DNA from: Escherichia phage KKE7M
Sequence record: PQ356295.1
Length of the DNA: 64,000 bases
Direction: 5' to 3' (one strand)
Below the pieces are notes generated by a model. It saw only the letters and a list, made by a program, of their open reading frames with translations. It had not been told where the DNA came from and did not search any database. Positions 28,814 through 60,852 of the stretch are shown here, piece by piece. Positions within the stretch are counted from its first letter, which is position 1. Each line of letters begins with the position of its first letter. A program made the position numbers and the translations under genes.

Positions 28814-29347
28814 ATGGGTTTTGATGACATGTTATTATATGAGGAGGCTTGTGTGAAAGAAGCTATGGCTTTACCAGTTTTATCTATTGATATTACAACA
28901 GTAGACACTTTTTCAGATTGTGAAACGTGTGGATCGTATTCATCTATTGTACATGAAGTCAGTGGGGATTTAGGCACTTACGAAGATGGAGATTATGCAA
29001 GTTGTTTAGGTGATAATCGAGATGGTGAAGTGGCGAATGTTGCAAACTGGATCGCTTCTAAGTTAAAAGAAAGAAATCGTCCGTTCCCTAATCTTCTTAC
29101 ACCAGAATCTATGCTTAAAGCTGAACAAGAGATGGATGACTATGGTTATAAAGTAGATTATGACTATAATGATCCTACTTATAAAAAATTGAGTGACAAG
29201 TATTGGGAACTAGCTAATGCTTATGATAAATACTACTCTACAGAAAACATTGTTAAATTATTTTTAGATTTTGGAGTAGAAATTAATTGGGATTTCGAAG
29301 AGGAAGAGCGTTACGATGCATCTTATTGGGAGGACGAGGGTGAATGA
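28814..29347 (+). CDS. hypothetical acidic protein (177 aa)
   Basis: ATG 28814 after GGAGGA. Confidence 0.5.
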   Translation: MGFDDMLLYEEACVKEAMALPVLSIDITTVDTFSDCETCGSYSSIVHEVSGDLGTYEDGDYASCLGDNRDGEVANVANWIASKLKERNRPFPNLLTPESMLKAEQEMDDYGYKVDYDYNDPTYKKLSDKYWELANAYDKYYSTENIVKLFLDFGVEINWDFEEEERYDASYWEDEGE

Positions 29348-30084
29348 TAGAACGAAAACCCTTACCAGATAGAGATTACTTGTTATCAAGGTTTAGTGTG
29401 GAGAATGGTCGTCTTGTTTGGAAACCTAAACCTTCTACAACAAAAGAGAACAAAAGGTGGAATAGCAGATACGCAGGGAAGATTGCAGGGACTATTGATA
29501 AAGTTGGTTACTCTCATGTCAAAATAGATGGTATTGTATATTTGGAGCACAGAATTTGTTTTAAAATGTATCATAATTACTGTCCAGATGTTATAGACCA
29601 TGACGACGGCAATAAACTTAATAATGCGGAAAGTAATTTATTGGATAGTAACTATTTATTAAATAATAACAATAGACACGTAGATGGGTTAGAAGGTATT
29701 TATGAAAAGGATGGTGTTTTTCTTTGGGTTATAAACTACAACCAAGAAACTTTCTCTGTTTCAGGTTTCAAAACTAAAGAGGAAGCTACTGTAGCTAGAG
29801 CTTTAGCAAAACAAGAAATTTTGAAAGGATCTTATATCAAAAAAGAAAAGAAGCGTATAGATAACACTTCAGGATTAAGTTGTGTGTTTGTGGCAACAAG
29901 AGAGAGAACATTCTTTTTCAAGTTTGTGTTTGACAAGACCGCTTATTGCAAATATGGTTTCAACGATCCAGAGAGATGTGCTATAGCTCTGGAGAAGTTA
30001 AGGTTGAAGGTGATGAAAGAAAAATATAAACCTGCAAATAAAAGCATTTGCGAAAAATATAAGGAGGAGATTTATGCCGCGTAG
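29344..30084 (+). CDS. HNH endonuclease-like protein (HNH_3-type, 246 aa)
   Basis: GYSHVKIDG...LEHRI...VIDHDDGNKLNNAESNL pattern. Confidence 0.5.
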   Translation: MIERKPLPDRDYLLSRFSVENGRLVWKPKPSTTKENKRWNSRYAGKIAGTIDKVGYSHVKIDGIVYLEHRICFKMYHNYCPDVIDHDDGNKLNNAESNLLDSNYLLNNNNRHVDGLEGIYEKDGVFLWVINYNQETFSVSGFKTKEEATVARALAKQEILKGSYIKKEKKRIDNTSGLSCVFVATRERTFFFKFVFDKTAYCKYGFNDPERCAIALEKLRLKVMKEKYKPANKSICEKYKEEIYAA

Positions 30085-30889
30085 AGTCATATTCATAACT
30101 GGCGCAGGACTATCTGTGGATAGCGGTATCCCAGCTTTTAGAACAGATACTTCTTCAGGGGAGGCGTTATGGTCTTCTTATGATCTTTCTGAGGTCTGTG
30201 ACATTTTCAACTTCCGTGATGGTTATCAGCAAGAACAAGGTGTTCTTGATGCTATGGGTGGTTTAGATGCGGAAGGATATAACCTCTACCGTAAAACTCA
30301 CGACTTTTACAATAAACGTCGCGTGGAATTAGCGAAAGTTGACCCGAATCCAGCACATCTTCAGATTGGAGAATGGTTCAAAAAATATGGCCCAGAACGA
30401 ATTCTTAACATTACTACTAACGTGGATGACCTCCTTGAACGAGCAGGAGTAAATAGGGAAGAAGTGCTACATGTGCACGGTTTTCTTCCTGAAATTACTT
30501 TTCAAAGAAAAGCTGGACAACCTACAATTGTAAAAGATGTTGGTTATCAAGCCATAGATGTAGATGACTACCATTATGTAAAACCTAATGTAATTTTCTT
30601 TGGAGAAGCTGCTCCACTTTACACAGATATGTATCATATTCTTGATACACTAACGGCTCAAGATATGGTTGTAGTAGTAGGATGTTCAAACCAAGTTATC
30701 AATTTTAATTGGGAATTATTCCCTGCACTTAATATGGGTACAAAAATGATCGTTGTTAACCCAGGAATTAATTACGAAGAAACTCTTCTTTACGAAGATA
30801 GAGGAGTCTTTGTTTATCGAGAAAAGGCCGCAGATGCTTTTAGCAATCCTGCTTTCATAAAAATGATAGAAGATCATTTGACTAAATAA
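30074..30889 (+). CDS. SIR2-family (sirtuin-like) protein lacking zinc-binding cysteines
   Basis: GAGLSVDSGIPAFR, NPAH, TTNVDDLLERAG, HVHG, VIFFGE, VVVGCS, VVNPGIN match sirtuin motifs; no CxxC...CxxC module. Confidence 0.75.
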   Translation: MPRRVIFITGAGLSVDSGIPAFRTDTSSGEALWSSYDLSEVCDIFNFRDGYQQEQGVLDAMGGLDAEGYNLYRKTHDFYNKRRVELAKVDPNPAHLQIGEWFKKYGPERILNITTNVDDLLERAGVNREEVLHVHGFLPEITFQRKAGQPTIVKDVGYQAIDVDDYHYVKPNVIFFGEAAPLYTDMYHILDTLTAQDMVVVVGCSNQVINFNWELFPALNMGTKMIVVNPGINYEETLLYEDRGVFVYREKAADAFSNPAFIKMIEDHLTK

Positions 30890-55185: not shown

Positions 55186-55451
55186 CGTTATCAACCTTTT
55201 ATAAGTAATGTTATTGTGACGGTGGATTGTGGAGATCCTCACCTTTGCCCGTCCTGCATTGCACCCGCCTTTTATTTATTGTCGTTGTGCCTTGCCCCCC
55301 TCGACAAGATGAATAATATGTTATTACCCTGGTAACGTCAACCATTTTTTTAATCTTTTTTCATTTCTTTTTTGCTTGCTATCTATAAAGGAAACGGCTA
55401 TTATCTTTCTACCGCGCCAACCAGGGCGCACATCAAAGAAAGGGCGATACC

Positions 55452-55718
55452 ATGACAAATACTCCTTTACATCTCATGCACTCATTGGGCTGGCAAGGCG
55501 GCACGGTGCACCAGGTAGCAAGCGCAACGGGCTTAAAGGTTGAAACCGTTCTCAACCTGGGCGATCATAAGGTGGAAGAGATAGATCATTTTGATACGTT
55601 CGCAAATGGTTATCTATGGGCTTGCAGTGGCGGCGGGGAAAGCAAGATCCCACCAGGGGCGCGGGGCGACATGTATTTTTGGTTAGGTGTCCTATCCTGG
55701 CAAGAAAACAAAAAATAA
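55452..55718 (+). CDS. hypothetical protein (88 aa)
   Basis: ORF; promoter-like TTGCTA-N17-TATTAT upstream. Confidence 0.45.
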   Translation: MTNTPLHLMHSLGWQGGTVHQVASATGLKVETVLNLGDHKVEEIDHFDTFANGYLWACSGGGESKIPPGARGDMYFWLGVLSWQENKK

Positions 55719-55721
55719 TCT

Positions 55722-55750
55722 TGACAAGCCCAGGGATCGGGCTTATACTG
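55722..55750 (+). promoter_or_regulatory. sigma70-like promoter TTGACA-N17-TATACT
   Basis: Points into ORF-free Fur-box/repeat region. Confidence 0.4.
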
Positions 55751-55981
55751 TTTTACATACAGAAGAGGAAGCGCCACCCCCACGGCGTAAAGGCGGGGCT
55801 AACATACCAGGGGGGCACTGGTTGGAAGGTTGATCGCCGGTAGCTCGTCTAAAATAAATTTGTAAAGAAATGTAAAGATAAAAATAATCGCTTGCTTTTG
55901 TTGTTGGTTATGCTATTCTTATTGTATGGCGAGGGGACACGGGAGCGCGAGACAAACACCACCCCTGCGCGTTATTCTCTA

Positions 55982-56000
55982 AATGAGAAAAATTCTCATT
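55982..56000. promoter_or_regulatory. palindrome AATGAGAA-AAA-TTCTCATT
   Basis: Perfect inverted repeat related to adjacent Fur-box-like sites. Confidence 0.4.
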
Positions 56001-56024
56001 TGCTAACGATTCTCATTCTCTTAC

Positions 56025-56039
56025 TGAGAATGATTATCA
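56025..56039. promoter_or_regulatory. Fur-box-like palindrome TGAGAATGATTATCA
   Basis: 14/15 match to 7-1-7 consensus. Confidence 0.5.
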
Positions 56040-56053
56040 CTTACATAATTAAA

Positions 56054-56068
56054 TGATAATGATTCTCA
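56054..56068. promoter_or_regulatory. Fur-box-like palindrome TGATAATGATTCTCA
   Basis: 14/15 match. Confidence 0.5.
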
Positions 56069-56076
56069 TTTACAAA

Positions 56077-56091
56077 TGAGAATGATTATCA
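56077..56091. promoter_or_regulatory. Fur-box-like palindrome TGAGAATGATTATCA
   Basis: 14/15 match. Confidence 0.5.
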
Positions 56092-56116
56092 TACGCACAC
56101 CTATAAAAACACGAAA

Positions 56117-56320
56117 TTGAACTTTTCATTTTTGATTTTTCTACGGAAAAAGGCAAAAAAACTTTAAATAAACTGGGGAATTTTTAAAAAATTGAAGTTT
56201 TCATTTTCAAAATCTGGATAGAAATACATACAAAAACTTTAAATAATTTTGACCAAACTTGAACTTTTCATTTTCTAAATTTGTACCCAAAAATCTGTAA
56301 AAACTTTAAATAATTTTGTA
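56117..56320. repeat. three tandem ~67-77 bp repeat units, each with boxes TTGAA(C/G)TTTTCATTTT and AAAAACTTTAAATAA
   Basis: Box 1 at 56117, 56192, 56259; box 2 at 56154, 56231, 56300. Confidence 0.6.
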
Positions 56321-56532
56321 CTTTTTATAAAAATGATTTTACTGTTCTGTTATAAGTAGTAGTTAAGAGATAGTATGTCTTTTAAAGATCAGATACCATA
56401 GTCCAACAAACAAATTAAATACTTTATTAACAGGGTATAGAATACTACTTACTCTGGATATATTATTCAGAGGGTGAATTTCCGTACATGAAACCCACAC
56501 CCCTTTTTATAAAAATAAAAATTTTCAAAATA

Positions 56533-57084
56533 TCAGGAAATATCAGATTGTGCTTTTAGATAAACAGCAAGGTCTGTATGCCATTTTCCTAAAAGATTTT
56601 GTCCTTTCCAACAATCCTTATTTTCCACGTCACGATCCCACATCCCCATTTTGATACCATAAATAGAATCATAAGGGCTTGCCTCTACGAACTCCTTATC
56701 TGCGTAAGCGATAAGTTTATTTTTGAGATCTTCATTTTGTGTGTATTTAAGATACAAACCACGCTTGACAATCTTCTCCCGTAAAGAAGCCCAAGTATCT
56801 TCATCGTAATCTTTAACTAATCTACCTAGTCGCTTATAATATGCCTGTTCTTTTTCTCCTGTATATCTTAGATCTCCGGTTAAAATAGAAGATGCAATGT
56901 TGTAATCATAAAACAAACATGCTTTTCTCCACATCATATATTGTTCCACACAAGTAAATTCAACAGAACTTGTAATAGAATTATTATACTTGGGTGCTAA
57001 AGGTTCAATAAAAGATGATAGATACCAGTTGCTAAATTCATCTTTTGCTGAAAAGAAGAACACATACTTATCAGTAATCCGCAT
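56533..57084 (-). CDS. NADAR (YbiA-like) family protein
   Basis: VFFFSAKDEFSNW and CVEQYMMWRKACLF match YbiA FYS...FSNF and SEHYFQAQKF; NLLGKWHTDLAVYL C-terminal match. Confidence 0.65.
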   Translation of the reverse strand: MRITDKYVFFFSAKDEFSNWYLSSFIEPLAPKYNNSITSSVEFTCVEQYMMWRKACLFYDYNIASSILTGDLRYTGEKEQAYYKRLGRLVKDYDEDTWASLREKIVKRGLYLKYTQNEDLKNKLIAYADKEFVEASPYDSIYGIKMGMWDRDVENKDCWKGQNLLGKWHTDLAVYLKAQSDIS

Positions 57085-58074
57085 TTACATCTCCTTACTG
57101 TATACTAATTTGCCACCATATTGTGTAATAATTTTTTGAAGATTTTCCAAATCAGAAACACTTACTGTTTCTGTATAACCGTCTTTCAACTCTCTTTCCG
57201 TTAAAATACCAGTTTTTAATTTTTTCTTTATAGCTCTTTCAGCAGCCTTACATTGTTTTACTGTGCTAAAATCATATAAACAAATACGCTCCATAGGAAA
57301 CATATTACGGCTATTTTGAATTTTTAATCGTCTATCACTATCTTTAGCTATACCAAACTTAAGAGCAACTATAATATTATCATCCTTAACAATATTAATA
57401 TATAACTGCTGCTGACTATGACCAGCACACATAGGACAACCTCGACCGAGGCTTAATAAATTATGAGCACTCCCTATCTGCTCACCATGCACAAGACAAA
57501 AATATTTAAACTTACCTATAGAAGAGGGTTTGGTAATCCAATCTACCCAGACATACCCTTTCCCTTCTACTTCCTTTTTTACCCTATAGGTGATCTGGTC
57601 TTCTGTATACCGATAGTTCCCACAACGACACGGAATATACCCTCGTTTAAGGTTATCTCCTTCAGAGTAAAATTTACCATCACAAACACCTGCTTGAACA
57701 TATTCATCATGAGAGCAAACAGGACATTCAACCATCCAGATAATATTCCTACATCCTTTACCCCGTGTTCCTGTGTTAGTGAAGATAGTGCCTTCCTTAA
57801 ATTCCCCTGTAGAAAAGAAATCTGCAATATGTTGATCGTCGGACATTGTTTGTGACTTCCTTATATTCTTCCTCCTACATTGTGGACAACCGCTACCACA
57901 TTTAAAACTGTTAATACTTGTAGTATCCCATTTATAACCACAATGGCACAACAAATCAAGTTTTGTGTGGACCCCTTTCCATTGTCCCGTCCATCCTAAG
58001 ATTTGGATTTGCTTACTCTCTGCTATTGGTATACACTCTTCTTTATATTGTTCCCATGATTTTGGTGCTGCCAT
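57085..58074 (-). CDS. T5orf172 (GIY-YIG-like) domain protein with N-terminal zinc-ribbon repeats (329 aa)
   Basis: Repeated CxxC pairs; C-terminal LYINIVKDDNIIVALKFGIAKDSDRRLKIQN resembles T5orf172 domain. Confidence 0.45.
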   Translation of the reverse strand: MAAPKSWEQYKEECIPIAESKQIQILGWTGQWKGVHTKLDLLCHCGYKWDTTSINSFKCGSGCPQCRRKNIRKSQTMSDDQHIADFFSTGEFKEGTIFTNTGTRGKGCRNIIWMVECPVCSHDEYVQAGVCDGKFYSEGDNLKRGYIPCRCGNYRYTEDQITYRVKKEVEGKGYVWVDWITKPSSIGKFKYFCLVHGEQIGSAHNLLSLGRGCPMCAGHSQQQLYINIVKDDNIIVALKFGIAKDSDRRLKIQNSRNMFPMERICLYDFSTVKQCKAAERAIKKKLKTGILTERELKDGYTETVSVSDLENLQKIITQYGGKLVYSKEM

Positions 58075-58148: not shown

Positions 58149-59276
58149 TTAAAACACACTTGCCAAAGTTGCACCATTGGTGATAGTTGGTTCCAGAACA
58201 ATACGGAAAGAATCTTCTGGATCATCACTAAACACAACGATTTTACCGCCTGTGATAAGATCTGCTTTCATTTTTGTCGCATTCAATGGAATTCGAGCAT
58301 CGCCTTCATCATCAAAAACCACGTAAGAGCTATTAGCAAGGGCTTCTTTAGAGTCTGCATCACTTGGAGATGACAAGTACACGTCTAGTGTGCACGAACC
58401 ACCTAAAAAGATTGCAGGTGTAAAGTTATGCCAACTAGATACCCAGCTAACTTTCTGAAGTTTTCCATTAATAACAACGCTGCTGATATCCCATTTATTA
58501 CCACCACCTAAAGAAACGCCCATCATAGAGATGCATTCTTTAAAGGATAAATCAGGGTAGAAATTAAGTTCTTCTACTATACCTTGGATCACATCAAAGG
58601 ACAACTCTAAACTTACATCCCAAAGTCTTTGGAAATTATCAAAGTGTGCTTTGTTATCCAGGTTTTTATCTAAATAGTCAATCATAGTTTCTAGTGAGAT
58701 TTTATCATAATTAAAATTATAAAACACACGACTAGGACGATTTAAAAAGAATTCAGAGATAAAACCACTGTTTTTAGTCAGAATAAACAGTTTATTACCA
58801 CTGCCAGTACCATCTAACAAAGTGAGAAGTGCTTCTTGATCTTGTTTCTTCTCATATACTTTATCAAACTCGTCAAAAATAATCACTGCTTTGTCGGTGA
58901 TCTTGCTAATAAGTTCAATGAAATTAGCATCACTGTAGGCTTGAGTAACCATAATAGTTGGAATACCTTCTTCTACAAGATCACGACTAATGAGTTTGGC
59001 TAACATAGTTTTACCACTACCCTTAGTTCCTGTCAGAAGCAAGCCTGTATTTTTACCTTGTGCACTCCGGCGATGGAATGTACGGATAACGTGATTTGCT
59101 CGTTTTTCTGTTTCACCATACAGAACATCCGGTACACCTGTTAGATTACCACGGCTTAAAAAATAATTGCCAAGGGGATCACGACTAACAGTATAGAATC
59201 CAGGTGGAAGATAGTTAGATTCCACGCCCATATCTTTATTTACACTTACAATATCACCATAAATCGTGTATTTCAT
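58149..59276 (-). CDS. AAA+ / P-loop ATPase (375 aa)
   Basis: Walker A GTKGSGKT, Walker B VIIFDEFD; C-terminal domain unassigned. Confidence 0.6.
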   Translation of the reverse strand: MKYTIYGDIVSVNKDMGVESNYLPPGFYTVSRDPLGNYFLSRGNLTGVPDVLYGETEKRANHVIRTFHRRSAQGKNTGLLLTGTKGSGKTMLAKLISRDLVEEGIPTIMVTQAYSDANFIELISKITDKAVIIFDEFDKVYEKKQDQEALLTLLDGTGSGNKLFILTKNSGFISEFFLNRPSRVFYNFNYDKISLETMIDYLDKNLDNKAHFDNFQRLWDVSLELSFDVIQGIVEELNFYPDLSFKECISMMGVSLGGGNKWDISSVVINGKLQKVSWVSSWHNFTPAIFLGGSCTLDVYLSSPSDADSKEALANSSYVVFDDEGDARIPLNATKMKADLITGGKIVVFSDDPEDSFRIVLEPTITNGATLASVF

Positions 59277-59933: not shown

Positions 59934-60185
59934 TTAAAATTCAACCACCACTTTATCGAGGTGCTCTGCTTCAACTTGATCTAATGTTAACACCTCAACT
60001 AAACCCTTGTCAATACCTAATTTAATAACATCAACATATTGTCCAAACAGATCCTGGATAGATATCTTGTGTTCGACAACAACAACCACTTCATTCCCTT
60101 TTGTGAATTCTCTCCATACACGTCCACATTTGAAAATAAAGTCTGCTTCATCTGCTGTTATCATTTTAGGTTTGATACTTAACAT
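59934..60185 (-). CDS. hypothetical protein (83 aa)
   Basis: ORF. Confidence 0.45.
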   Translation of the reverse strand: MLSIKPKMITADEADFIFKCGRVWREFTKGNEVVVVVEHKISIQDLFGQYVDVIKLGIDKGLVEVLTLDQVEAEHLDKVVVEF

Positions 60186-60736
60186 TATAAAACTCCGTAT
60201 TCCGGCTCAAAATCATATTTTTCACAAATCATGTCCCAGCGTTCGTTACCGAAGCTGCGACCACAAATTGCATCGTAAGCATAATGCTCTGCTAACCATT
60301 TTACAACAGTGTCTACATCATTATCAAGTGGTAATCTGAATTCTTTGCCATAGCGCATACGAAGAACAAATTCACCCCCTTCTTCAAACAAGTGCATATG
60401 GCTTTTTGCATAAGAAGCCAGGTTGAAAAAAGATACCTCTTCCCAGCATTCTTTTTCCACTGCAATCCCGTGATCAACAACTAAAGCACCGATGACGCGA
60501 TACATAATAGGGCTAAACAGTGCGCTTGAGTTAGGCTGATCTTCAACTATAGACCAACCTGTTCCCTGCCAAATTTCATTTTTGAACCATTGTTCCATGT
60601 TATTTCCTTTTTCGTCTACAAGGGATTGGTTACGCATTTCAAACCATTCCCCTTCGCAAAAGTATGTATGTTTAACACGTTTGCCTTTTAACATTGCTTC
60701 TTTGGCTTCTACCCAAGTCAGATCGGTGTTTTGCAT
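60185..60736 (-). CDS. hypothetical protein with DUF2829-like N-terminus (183 aa)
   Basis: Start refined (GAGAGGAG RBS); TWVEAKEAMLKGKRVKH resembles DUF2829 phage proteins. Confidence 0.45.
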   Translation of the reverse strand: MQNTDLTWVEAKEAMLKGKRVKHTYFCEGEWFEMRNQSLVDEKGNNMEQWFKNEIWQGTGWSIVEDQPNSSALFSPIMYRVIGALVVDHGIAVEKECWEEVSFFNLASYAKSHMHLFEEGGEFVLRMRYGKEFRLPLDNDVDTVVKWLAEHYAYDAICGRSFGNERWDMICEKYDFEPEYGVL

Positions 60737-60852
60737 TCGTTTATCTCCTCTCATTTGTGTATGCATTAAGATTAGCACAATAAAACAGTATGTCAATACT
60801 TGATCTGAAATTAGTTTCTGGTACTCTGTGTGTATCGTAACAAAAGAGGTAG

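Follow-up and report, generated by a model that had tools for sequence, protein, structure and literature searches.

Does the short leftward gene that follows a T5orf172-type gene in Escherichia phage KKE7M encode an enzyme able to reverse the ADP-ribosylation of DNA by DarT-type toxins? The first-pass annotation, made from the letters of the sequence, had proposed so: it read the ORF at 56533-57084 as a YbiA-like NADAR protein and as a plausible counter-defence factor. We addressed the question in the 64,000-nucleotide stretch of sequence record PQ356295.1, hereafter called the window, by profile searches, structure prediction, and comparison with orthologous phages and with the published literature. 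The window derives from a Justusliebigvirus, one of the E. coli myophages of the Stephanstirmvirinae. The features discussed below are collected in Table 1.

Table 1. Position and basis of assignment of the features discussed in the text
Feature	Position	Strand	Length	Description and basis
adfN-type gene	56533..57084	-	183 aa	Stand-alone NADAR-domain ADP-ribosylglycohydrolase (predicted); Pfam, AF2, Foldseek, orthology
Shine-Dalgarno AAGGAG	57091..57096	-		6 nt 5' of the NADAR ATG; read from the sequence
CapR/T5orf172 protein	57085..58074	-	329 aa	Two CapR zinc-ribbon-type repeats and a C-terminal T5orf172 (GIY-YIG-related) domain; Pfam, PHROG
AAA-type ATPase	58149..59276	-	375 aa	phrog_2376 (E=7e-108); Pfam AAA at residues 79-170
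ORF in GC-rich island	55452..55718	+	88 aa	Opposite strand to all neighbours; 'hypothetical' in Bas61 (bas61_0109)
SIR2-family (sirtuin) protein	30074-30889	+		Pfam SIR2, 74 bits; ~27 kb from the NADAR gene
ORF, longest form from a TTG start	60185-60796	-	203 aa	phrog_22208/3474 at residues 20-87, phrog_11295 at residues 93-202

The proposed reading frame was borne out to the nucleotide, with an ATG at 57084, a stop codon ending at 56533 on the minus strand and a Shine-Dalgarno motif 6 nt upstream of the ATG. This AAGGAG sits within the 3' end of the CapR/T5orf172 gene, and the TAA stop codon of that gene (57085-57087) directly abuts the NADAR ATG, an arrangement which suggests that translation of the NADAR gene may be coupled to that of the CapR/T5orf172 gene. 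The two segments in which a NADAR signature had been recognized, FSNW and EQYMMWRKA, are indeed there, as F17-S18-N19-W20 and E47-Q-Y-M-M-W-R-K54-A55. In profile alignments, the former faced the LSNF of the P. nicotianae NADAR (8BAU) and the FSNF of E. coli YbiA, and the latter the EQYFMKRKQ of 8BAU and the EHYFQ of YbiA. S18, E47, and K54 were invariant in a set of 58 diverse homologues. A profile built from these homologues matched no other ORF of the 64-kb window, so there is no second NADAR copy within it.

The comparison with NADAR profiles, which had been suggested as one of the checks to be made, gave a strong match. The Pfam NADAR model PF08719 (DUF1768) was hit at E=2.5e-36 and 125.8 bits, for a cutoff of 35.1, over profile positions 9-154 of 163. 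The NCBIfam model TIGR02464 ('riboflavin biosynthesis intermediates N-glycosidase'), which works at the level of the domain, gave 110.5 bits for a cutoff of 73.7, and phrog_1017 was matched at E=4e-50. In the PDB, a search with the single sequence matched 8BAU only (E=2.7e-13), and the profile search matched the same structure at E=1.2e-36. Judged by these scores, the protein is clearly a NADAR-domain protein, and its family assignment lies far beyond chance.

The fold and the active site were consistent with this assignment. The AF2 model, computed from the 58-sequence alignment, reached a pLDDT of 97.3 and a pTM of 0.91, and a Foldseek search of the PDB returned two significant fold matches only, namely 8BAU, whose structure contains ADP-ribose (TM 0.77), and YbiA (2B3W, TM 0.68-0.73). 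The model displays the YbiA-type alpha+beta fold, with a helical core and two small flanking sheets. Schuller 2023 described the residues of the P. nicotianae NADAR that contact ADP-ribose, that is, E43, K50, R79, W89, R93, E125, D130, and W133. In sequence and profile alignments, these correspond to E47, K54, R88, W98, R102, E134, D139, and Y142 of the window protein, of which E47, K54, W98, E134, and D139 were invariant and R88 was at least 90% conserved among the 58 homologues. By transfer of the roles assigned by Schuller 2023 through the alignment, E47 would be the catalytic Glu, K54 the phosphate-binding Lys, and E134 the acidic residue of the last strand, so that the protein carries, together with D139, the residues that define the NADAR superfamily. 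Since the ADP-ribose-contacting positions are conserved, the active site is intact.

We then looked for the closest relatives of the gene. The 4 kb around it were 99.7% identical to Escherichia phage 92CQ and 96-99% identical to about 55 other Justusliebigvirus E. coli myophages. At the protein level, 182 of the 183 residues (99.5%) were shared with bas61_0107 of the BASEL phage Bas61 (EmilieFrey) and 180 of the 183 (98.4%) with bas60_0111 of the BASEL phage Bas60 (PaulScherrer). As in the window, each of these two genes lies downstream of a CapR-domain gene and an ATPase gene. The near-identity and the conserved gene neighbourhood make the window gene, at the level of sequence, an orthologue of the Bas60 gene, known as AdfN^Bas60. 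The differences from the Bas60 allele are N62S, A99T, and A178T, none of which falls on a mapped active-site residue. A99T adjoins W98, one of the ADP-ribose-contacting positions, and is probably neutral, because Thr and Ala alternate at this place among otherwise near-identical phage alleles. Further away, a Phapecoctavirus orthologue, 57-63% identical, occupies the same genomic position, and more than 650 additional phage records, the majority from large myoviruses that infect Staphylococcus, Listeria, Bacillus, Enterococcus, and Klebsiella, hold remoter relatives (32-46% identity).

This orthology is important because the function of AdfN^Bas60 has been published. In February 2025, Johannesman, Awasthi, Carlson, and LeRoux (Nat Commun 2025, PMC11825919) reported, in the main text of their article, a search for NADARs in the BASEL collection and named the proteins AdfN, for 'anti-DarT factor NADAR', the AdfN^Bas60 type being present in Bas60, Bas61, and Bas62. 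According to their Fig. 5 and text, AdfN^Bas60 neutralized the toxicity of DarT1 in uninfected E. coli, and its ectopic expression allowed RB69, T5, and Bas25 to plaque at full titre on DarTG1 hosts. The thymidine-targeting DarTG2 was not affected, and T5 was not helped against it. It acted alone, with no other phage factor required. In the tree described there, AdfN^Bas60 groups with bacterial NADARs that are neither DarT-associated nor of the YbiA or DarG1 type, and the authors suggest that the Bas60-type AdfN was acquired independently of the T4-type AdfN. Thus, the experiment that the first-pass annotation had proposed, rescue of phage growth on a DarTG-carrying host, had already been carried out with a 98.4% identical protein and had succeeded for three phages on DarTG1. 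The idea of a NADAR that reverses the guanine ADP-ribosylation made by DarT, and so serves as a counter-defence factor, was therefore correct, but it is not new, as the function was published for the orthologue in 2025.

Taken together, the data make it very probable that the window gene is an orphan, antitoxin-like NADAR ADP-ribosylglycohydrolase of the AdfN^Bas60 type that counters DarTG1. The anti-DarT1 phenotype of the window allele itself is predicted by transfer from its near-identical orthologue. The mechanism would be as follows. The DarT1 toxin of a host DarTG1 toxin-antitoxin system would ADP-ribosylate guanine, at N2, in the phage DNA and thereby block replication. The NADAR would cleave, by hydrolysis, the N-glycosidic bond that links the guanine to the distal ribose, ADP-ribose would be released, and replication could proceed on DNA that is unmodified again. 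The chemistry of these steps is documented in the literature, including Schuller 2023: DarT1 modifies guanine at N2, NADARs hydrolyse that bond, and members of all four NADAR families remove this guanine-linked ADP-ribose (G-ADPr) in vitro. A separate study showed, however, that G-ADPr hydrolase activity is no guarantee of protection in vivo, as YbiA and the T4 NADAR failed to rescue cells from DarT1 toxicity. In PMC11825919, AdfN^T4 and its mutants are the only proteins that the Methods describe as purified and assayed, and neither an in-vitro assay nor a catalytic mutant of the Bas60-type protein is described in the main text and Methods. Hydrolysis in vitro has been demonstrated for AdfN^T4, DarG1, and other NADARs; for the Bas60-type clade, we infer from the intact active site that the phenotype is due to G-ADPr hydrolysis. 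Likewise, the gene would presumably protect its own phage in nature; the main text of PMC11825919 reports neither a knockout in Bas60-62 nor a test of the native resistance of these phages to DarTG1.

The name of TIGR02464 points to a different function, that of a YbiA-like housekeeping N-glycosidase destroying reactive intermediates of the riboflavin pathway, and the window protein does exceed the curated cutoff of that model, as given above. Several GenBank records carry labels in the same vein, either 'YbiA-like N-glycosidase' or 'GTP cyclohydrolase II'. We consider this reading barely credible. The clade profile scored 129 bits against the P. nicotianae NADAR and 69 bits against YbiA, and the orthologue has an anti-DarT1 phenotype, whereas YbiA itself does not rescue from DarT1. 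The protein is made of a single domain, and no ribA or ribD fusion or neighbour, nor any other annotated gene of the riboflavin pathway, was found in ~70 kb of the curated Bas61 record; the same annotation has no NAD-salvage neighbour either, apart from the distant SIR2 gene. As for the cyclohydrolase label, Pfam detects no cyclohydrolase domain in the protein, and the label comes from the naming of RibA fusions. The qualifier 'YbiA-like' used in the first-pass annotation is a loose one for a protein that is closer to the P. nicotianae type.

A second alternative accepts that the protein is an ADP-ribosylglycohydrolase and questions its target. Its main natural substrate would not be the DNA guanine modified by DarT1 but another ADP-ribose conjugate or a soluble molecule derived from ADP-ribose, with cytidine-ADPr, RNA guanosine-ADPr, and NAD-derived immune signals as examples. 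The enzyme would then be a de-ADP-ribosylase of wider scope, and its action against DarTG1 one of several effects. The active site provides an argument for it. In a study published in Toxins 2026, enzymes of the Glu-type NADAR and YbiA families cleared DNA and RNA of G-ADPr as well as of C-ADPr, while the Asp-type DarG1 and the His-type T4 NADAR acted on G-ADPr only; the window protein carries the matching Glu-type motif, E134-A-S136-x-x-D139-x-x-Y142. Moreover, G-ADPr on RNA was removed by all NADARs tested in the literature, and Iyer et al. 2022 had proposed soluble ADP-ribose-derived signals as targets of phage NADARs in general. The distribution of related NADARs, present in more than 700 phage records that include Staphylococcus, Listeria, Bacillus, Enterococcus, and Klebsiella phages, is also wider than selection by DarTG1 alone would predict. 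Against this, the sole experimental phenotype of the orthologue, as reported in the main text of PMC11825919, is anti-DarTG1, the NADAR literature that we examined describes no phage defence based on C-ADPr or on RNA G-ADPr, and that literature shows no NADAR activity on soluble signals. A main substrate other than DarT1-modified DNA guanine appears improbable to us. A less demanding proposal, which leaves the anti-DarTG1 role in place, is that the Bas60-type AdfN acts as a broader-spectrum nucleic-acid de-ADP-ribosylase, whose protection of the phage could extend past DarTG1 to other ADP-ribosylating defences or toxins, among them some not yet described. We regard it as possible, and put it forward tentatively.

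If the NADAR protein counters DarTG1, one may ask whether it does so together with its neighbours. On the minus strand, the AAA ATPase gene is followed by the CapR/T5orf172 gene, the NADAR gene, and then ~800 bp without any gene on the same strand. The first-pass annotation had described the NADAR gene as the last one of a leftward operon that also holds a T5orf172 protein and an AAA+ ATPase. The gene order was confirmed. The single transcript, in contrast, is deduced from spacing only, and the T5orf172 assignment is marginal, with 20.6 bits for a cutoff of 20, which it barely reaches. The same protein matched Pfam CapR with 87.6 bits and phrog_681, a family that PHROG labels 'endonuclease', at E=1e-67. 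That the NADAR gene ends the operon is a reasonable reading of the layout rather than a demonstrated transcript end.

Justusliebigvirus phages share this order of the three genes, and so do Phapecoctavirus phages, in which two small genes are interposed. This conservation, together with the abutting stop and start codons, would fit a single functional module made of the three gene products. Yet AdfN^Bas60 was reported, in the main text of PMC11825919, to suffice alone in uninfected cells and for three unrelated phages, remoter phage NADARs have other annotated neighbours, and the number of CapR repeats varies between near-identical phages, as in a fast-evolving or mobile gene. We find a three-gene module very unlikely. 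Given the activity of AdfN^Bas60 on its own after ectopic expression, neither the ATPase gene nor the CapR/T5orf172 gene would be required for NADAR activity.

Both neighbours deserve a comment of their own. The CapR/T5orf172 protein differs in length between almost identical phages, with 329 aa and 2 CapR repeats in the window and 325 aa in Bas61; other orthologues have 396 aa and 3 repeats (muut), 467 aa and 4 repeats (Bas60), or 486 aa and 3 repeats (phAPEC8). This varying repeat number suggests a fast-evolving gene that gains and loses repeats and is possibly homing-endonuclease-like. The AAA ATPase is labelled 'FtsH-like protease' or 'ATPase or Zn metalloprotease' in public records. In Pfam searches, we found neither a peptidase domain nor any match to peptidase M41, and the C-terminal ~200 aa matched nothing, so the protease label looks unsupported as far as the sequence tells.

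The region 3' of the NADAR gene (gap at 55719-56532) contains an AT-rich repeat array and a GC-rich island that bears an ORF on the opposite strand. No canonical intrinsic terminator was found just 3' of the NADAR gene, where a hairpin at ~56466-56500 lacks a U-tract and has a fold z-score of -0.75. Rfam searches of the gap gave sub-threshold chance matches only, and the whole 64-kb window contains no tRNA. Between 56114 and 56334, three tandem repeats of ~70-75 bp, 65-72% identical to each other and with 22-26% GC, share the cores TTGAACTTTTCATTTT and AAAAACTTTAAATAA. Within the corresponding gap of phage muut, the sequence record lists repeat_regions; in phAPEC8, the gap 3' of the NADAR gene measures 1.26 kb. 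These repeats could be a replication origin, a promoter array, or a protein-binding array. Next to them, the segment 55980-56097 is crowded with copies of TGAGAATGATTATCA / ATGAGAA..TTCTCAT in direct and in inverted orientation; among these, two 19-nt arms, separated by 2 nt, show 95% complementarity. The segment has no Rfam match and looks like a putative cluster of binding sites, of the operator or iteron-like kind. The GC-rich island itself (55400-55850) has 50-53% GC, compared to ~37% for the window, and its 88-aa ORF matched nothing in Pfam or PADLOC. At 55721-55749, a strong sigma-70-like site (TTGACA-17-TATACT, 11/12) overlaps a terminator-like hairpin.

Two further loci of the window were noticed. 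The sirtuin is another NAD-consuming enzyme of this phage, and its gene shares 11 nt with the ORF located just upstream (29344..30084), for which an HNH_3 match stayed below threshold. The longest ORF at 60185-60796 has its matches to two different PHROG families lying end to end, and at its place a 339-nt gene is annotated in Bas61 and a 552-nt gene in muut. It may result from the fusion of two genes or from a start codon called too far upstream.

The main value of the present analysis lies in a correct annotation, since a protein almost identical to an experimentally supported anti-DarTG1 counter-defence factor is at stake. In many GenBank phage records, orthologues and homologues of the NADAR gene are named 'GTP cyclohydrolase II', and most of the others are called 'hypothetical protein'. 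The former name is erroneous and has spread from the annotation of RibA-NADAR fusions. In practical terms, Justusliebigvirus and Phapecoctavirus phages that are candidates for phage therapy are predicted to resist E. coli strains carrying DarTG1. What remains of scientific value is modest and, beyond the correction of annotations, concerns the enzymology of the Glu-type clade of phage NADARs and the range of its substrates; the active site of this clade makes it a convenient test case for the reversal of cytidine- or RNA-linked ADP-ribosylation by phage NADARs.

Finally, we compared the window protein with the systems already described. PADLOC matched it to PDC-M42C, an unnamed candidate NADAR component, and NCBIfam DS32_2 gave 26 bits for a cutoff of 240. 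Membership of a defence system was rejected because the gene sits in the genome of a lytic phage and its orthologue acts as a counter-defence factor. A DarG1/BC4488-type NADAR was considered and rejected too. DarG1, the BC4488-type antitoxin of DarTG1, shares with the window protein its fold, its reaction, and the toxin product on which it acts, but its catalytic position is occupied by an Asp, its N-terminus is extended by a DNA-binding segment, and darT1 lies next to its gene. The window protein has a Glu at that position (E134), starts directly with the first core strand (residues 2-10 in the AF2 model) and thus has no such extension, and is flanked by the CapR/T5orf172 gene and non-coding DNA, with no ART gene next to it. 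No DarG1-type structure was matched in the Foldseek search of the PDB or in the search of the PDB with the NADAR profile, which is weak evidence for a distance from DarG1.

AdfN^T4 (T4 gp30.3, of the 'phage NADAR' family) is likewise a stand-alone phage NADAR, which removes guanine-ADPr and is active against DarTG1, though not against DarTG2. It differs by the His that it carries at the last-strand catalytic position, where the window protein has E134, a residue invariant in its clade. According to the main text of PMC11825919, AdfN^T4 belongs to another branch of the NADAR tree, needs a T-even context for full activity, and, unlike the Bas60 type, does not rescue uninfected cells from DarT1. 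E. coli YbiA has in common with the window protein its core fold, the conserved Glu and Asp, and a match to TIGR02464; it is, however, a housekeeping N-glycosidase of riboflavin intermediates, a weaker match to the clade profile, and unable to protect against DarT1 in vivo. The P. nicotianae NADAR, of the SCO5665-type 'NADAR family', is the closest solved structure by both sequence and fold. It has G-ADPr hydrolase activity and the same Glu-type E-A-S-x-x-D-x-x-aromatic motif, yet it is only ~28% identical, with W133 replaced by Y142, and its family is eukaryotic or bacterial, unlike the phage-borne window protein. The closest known system is AdfN^Bas60, which is the same gene: its length of 183 aa, its flanking genes, and the phage genus are all shared, and the differences amount to three conservative substitutions in the protein and to a shorter upstream CapR gene in the window, with two repeats instead of four.
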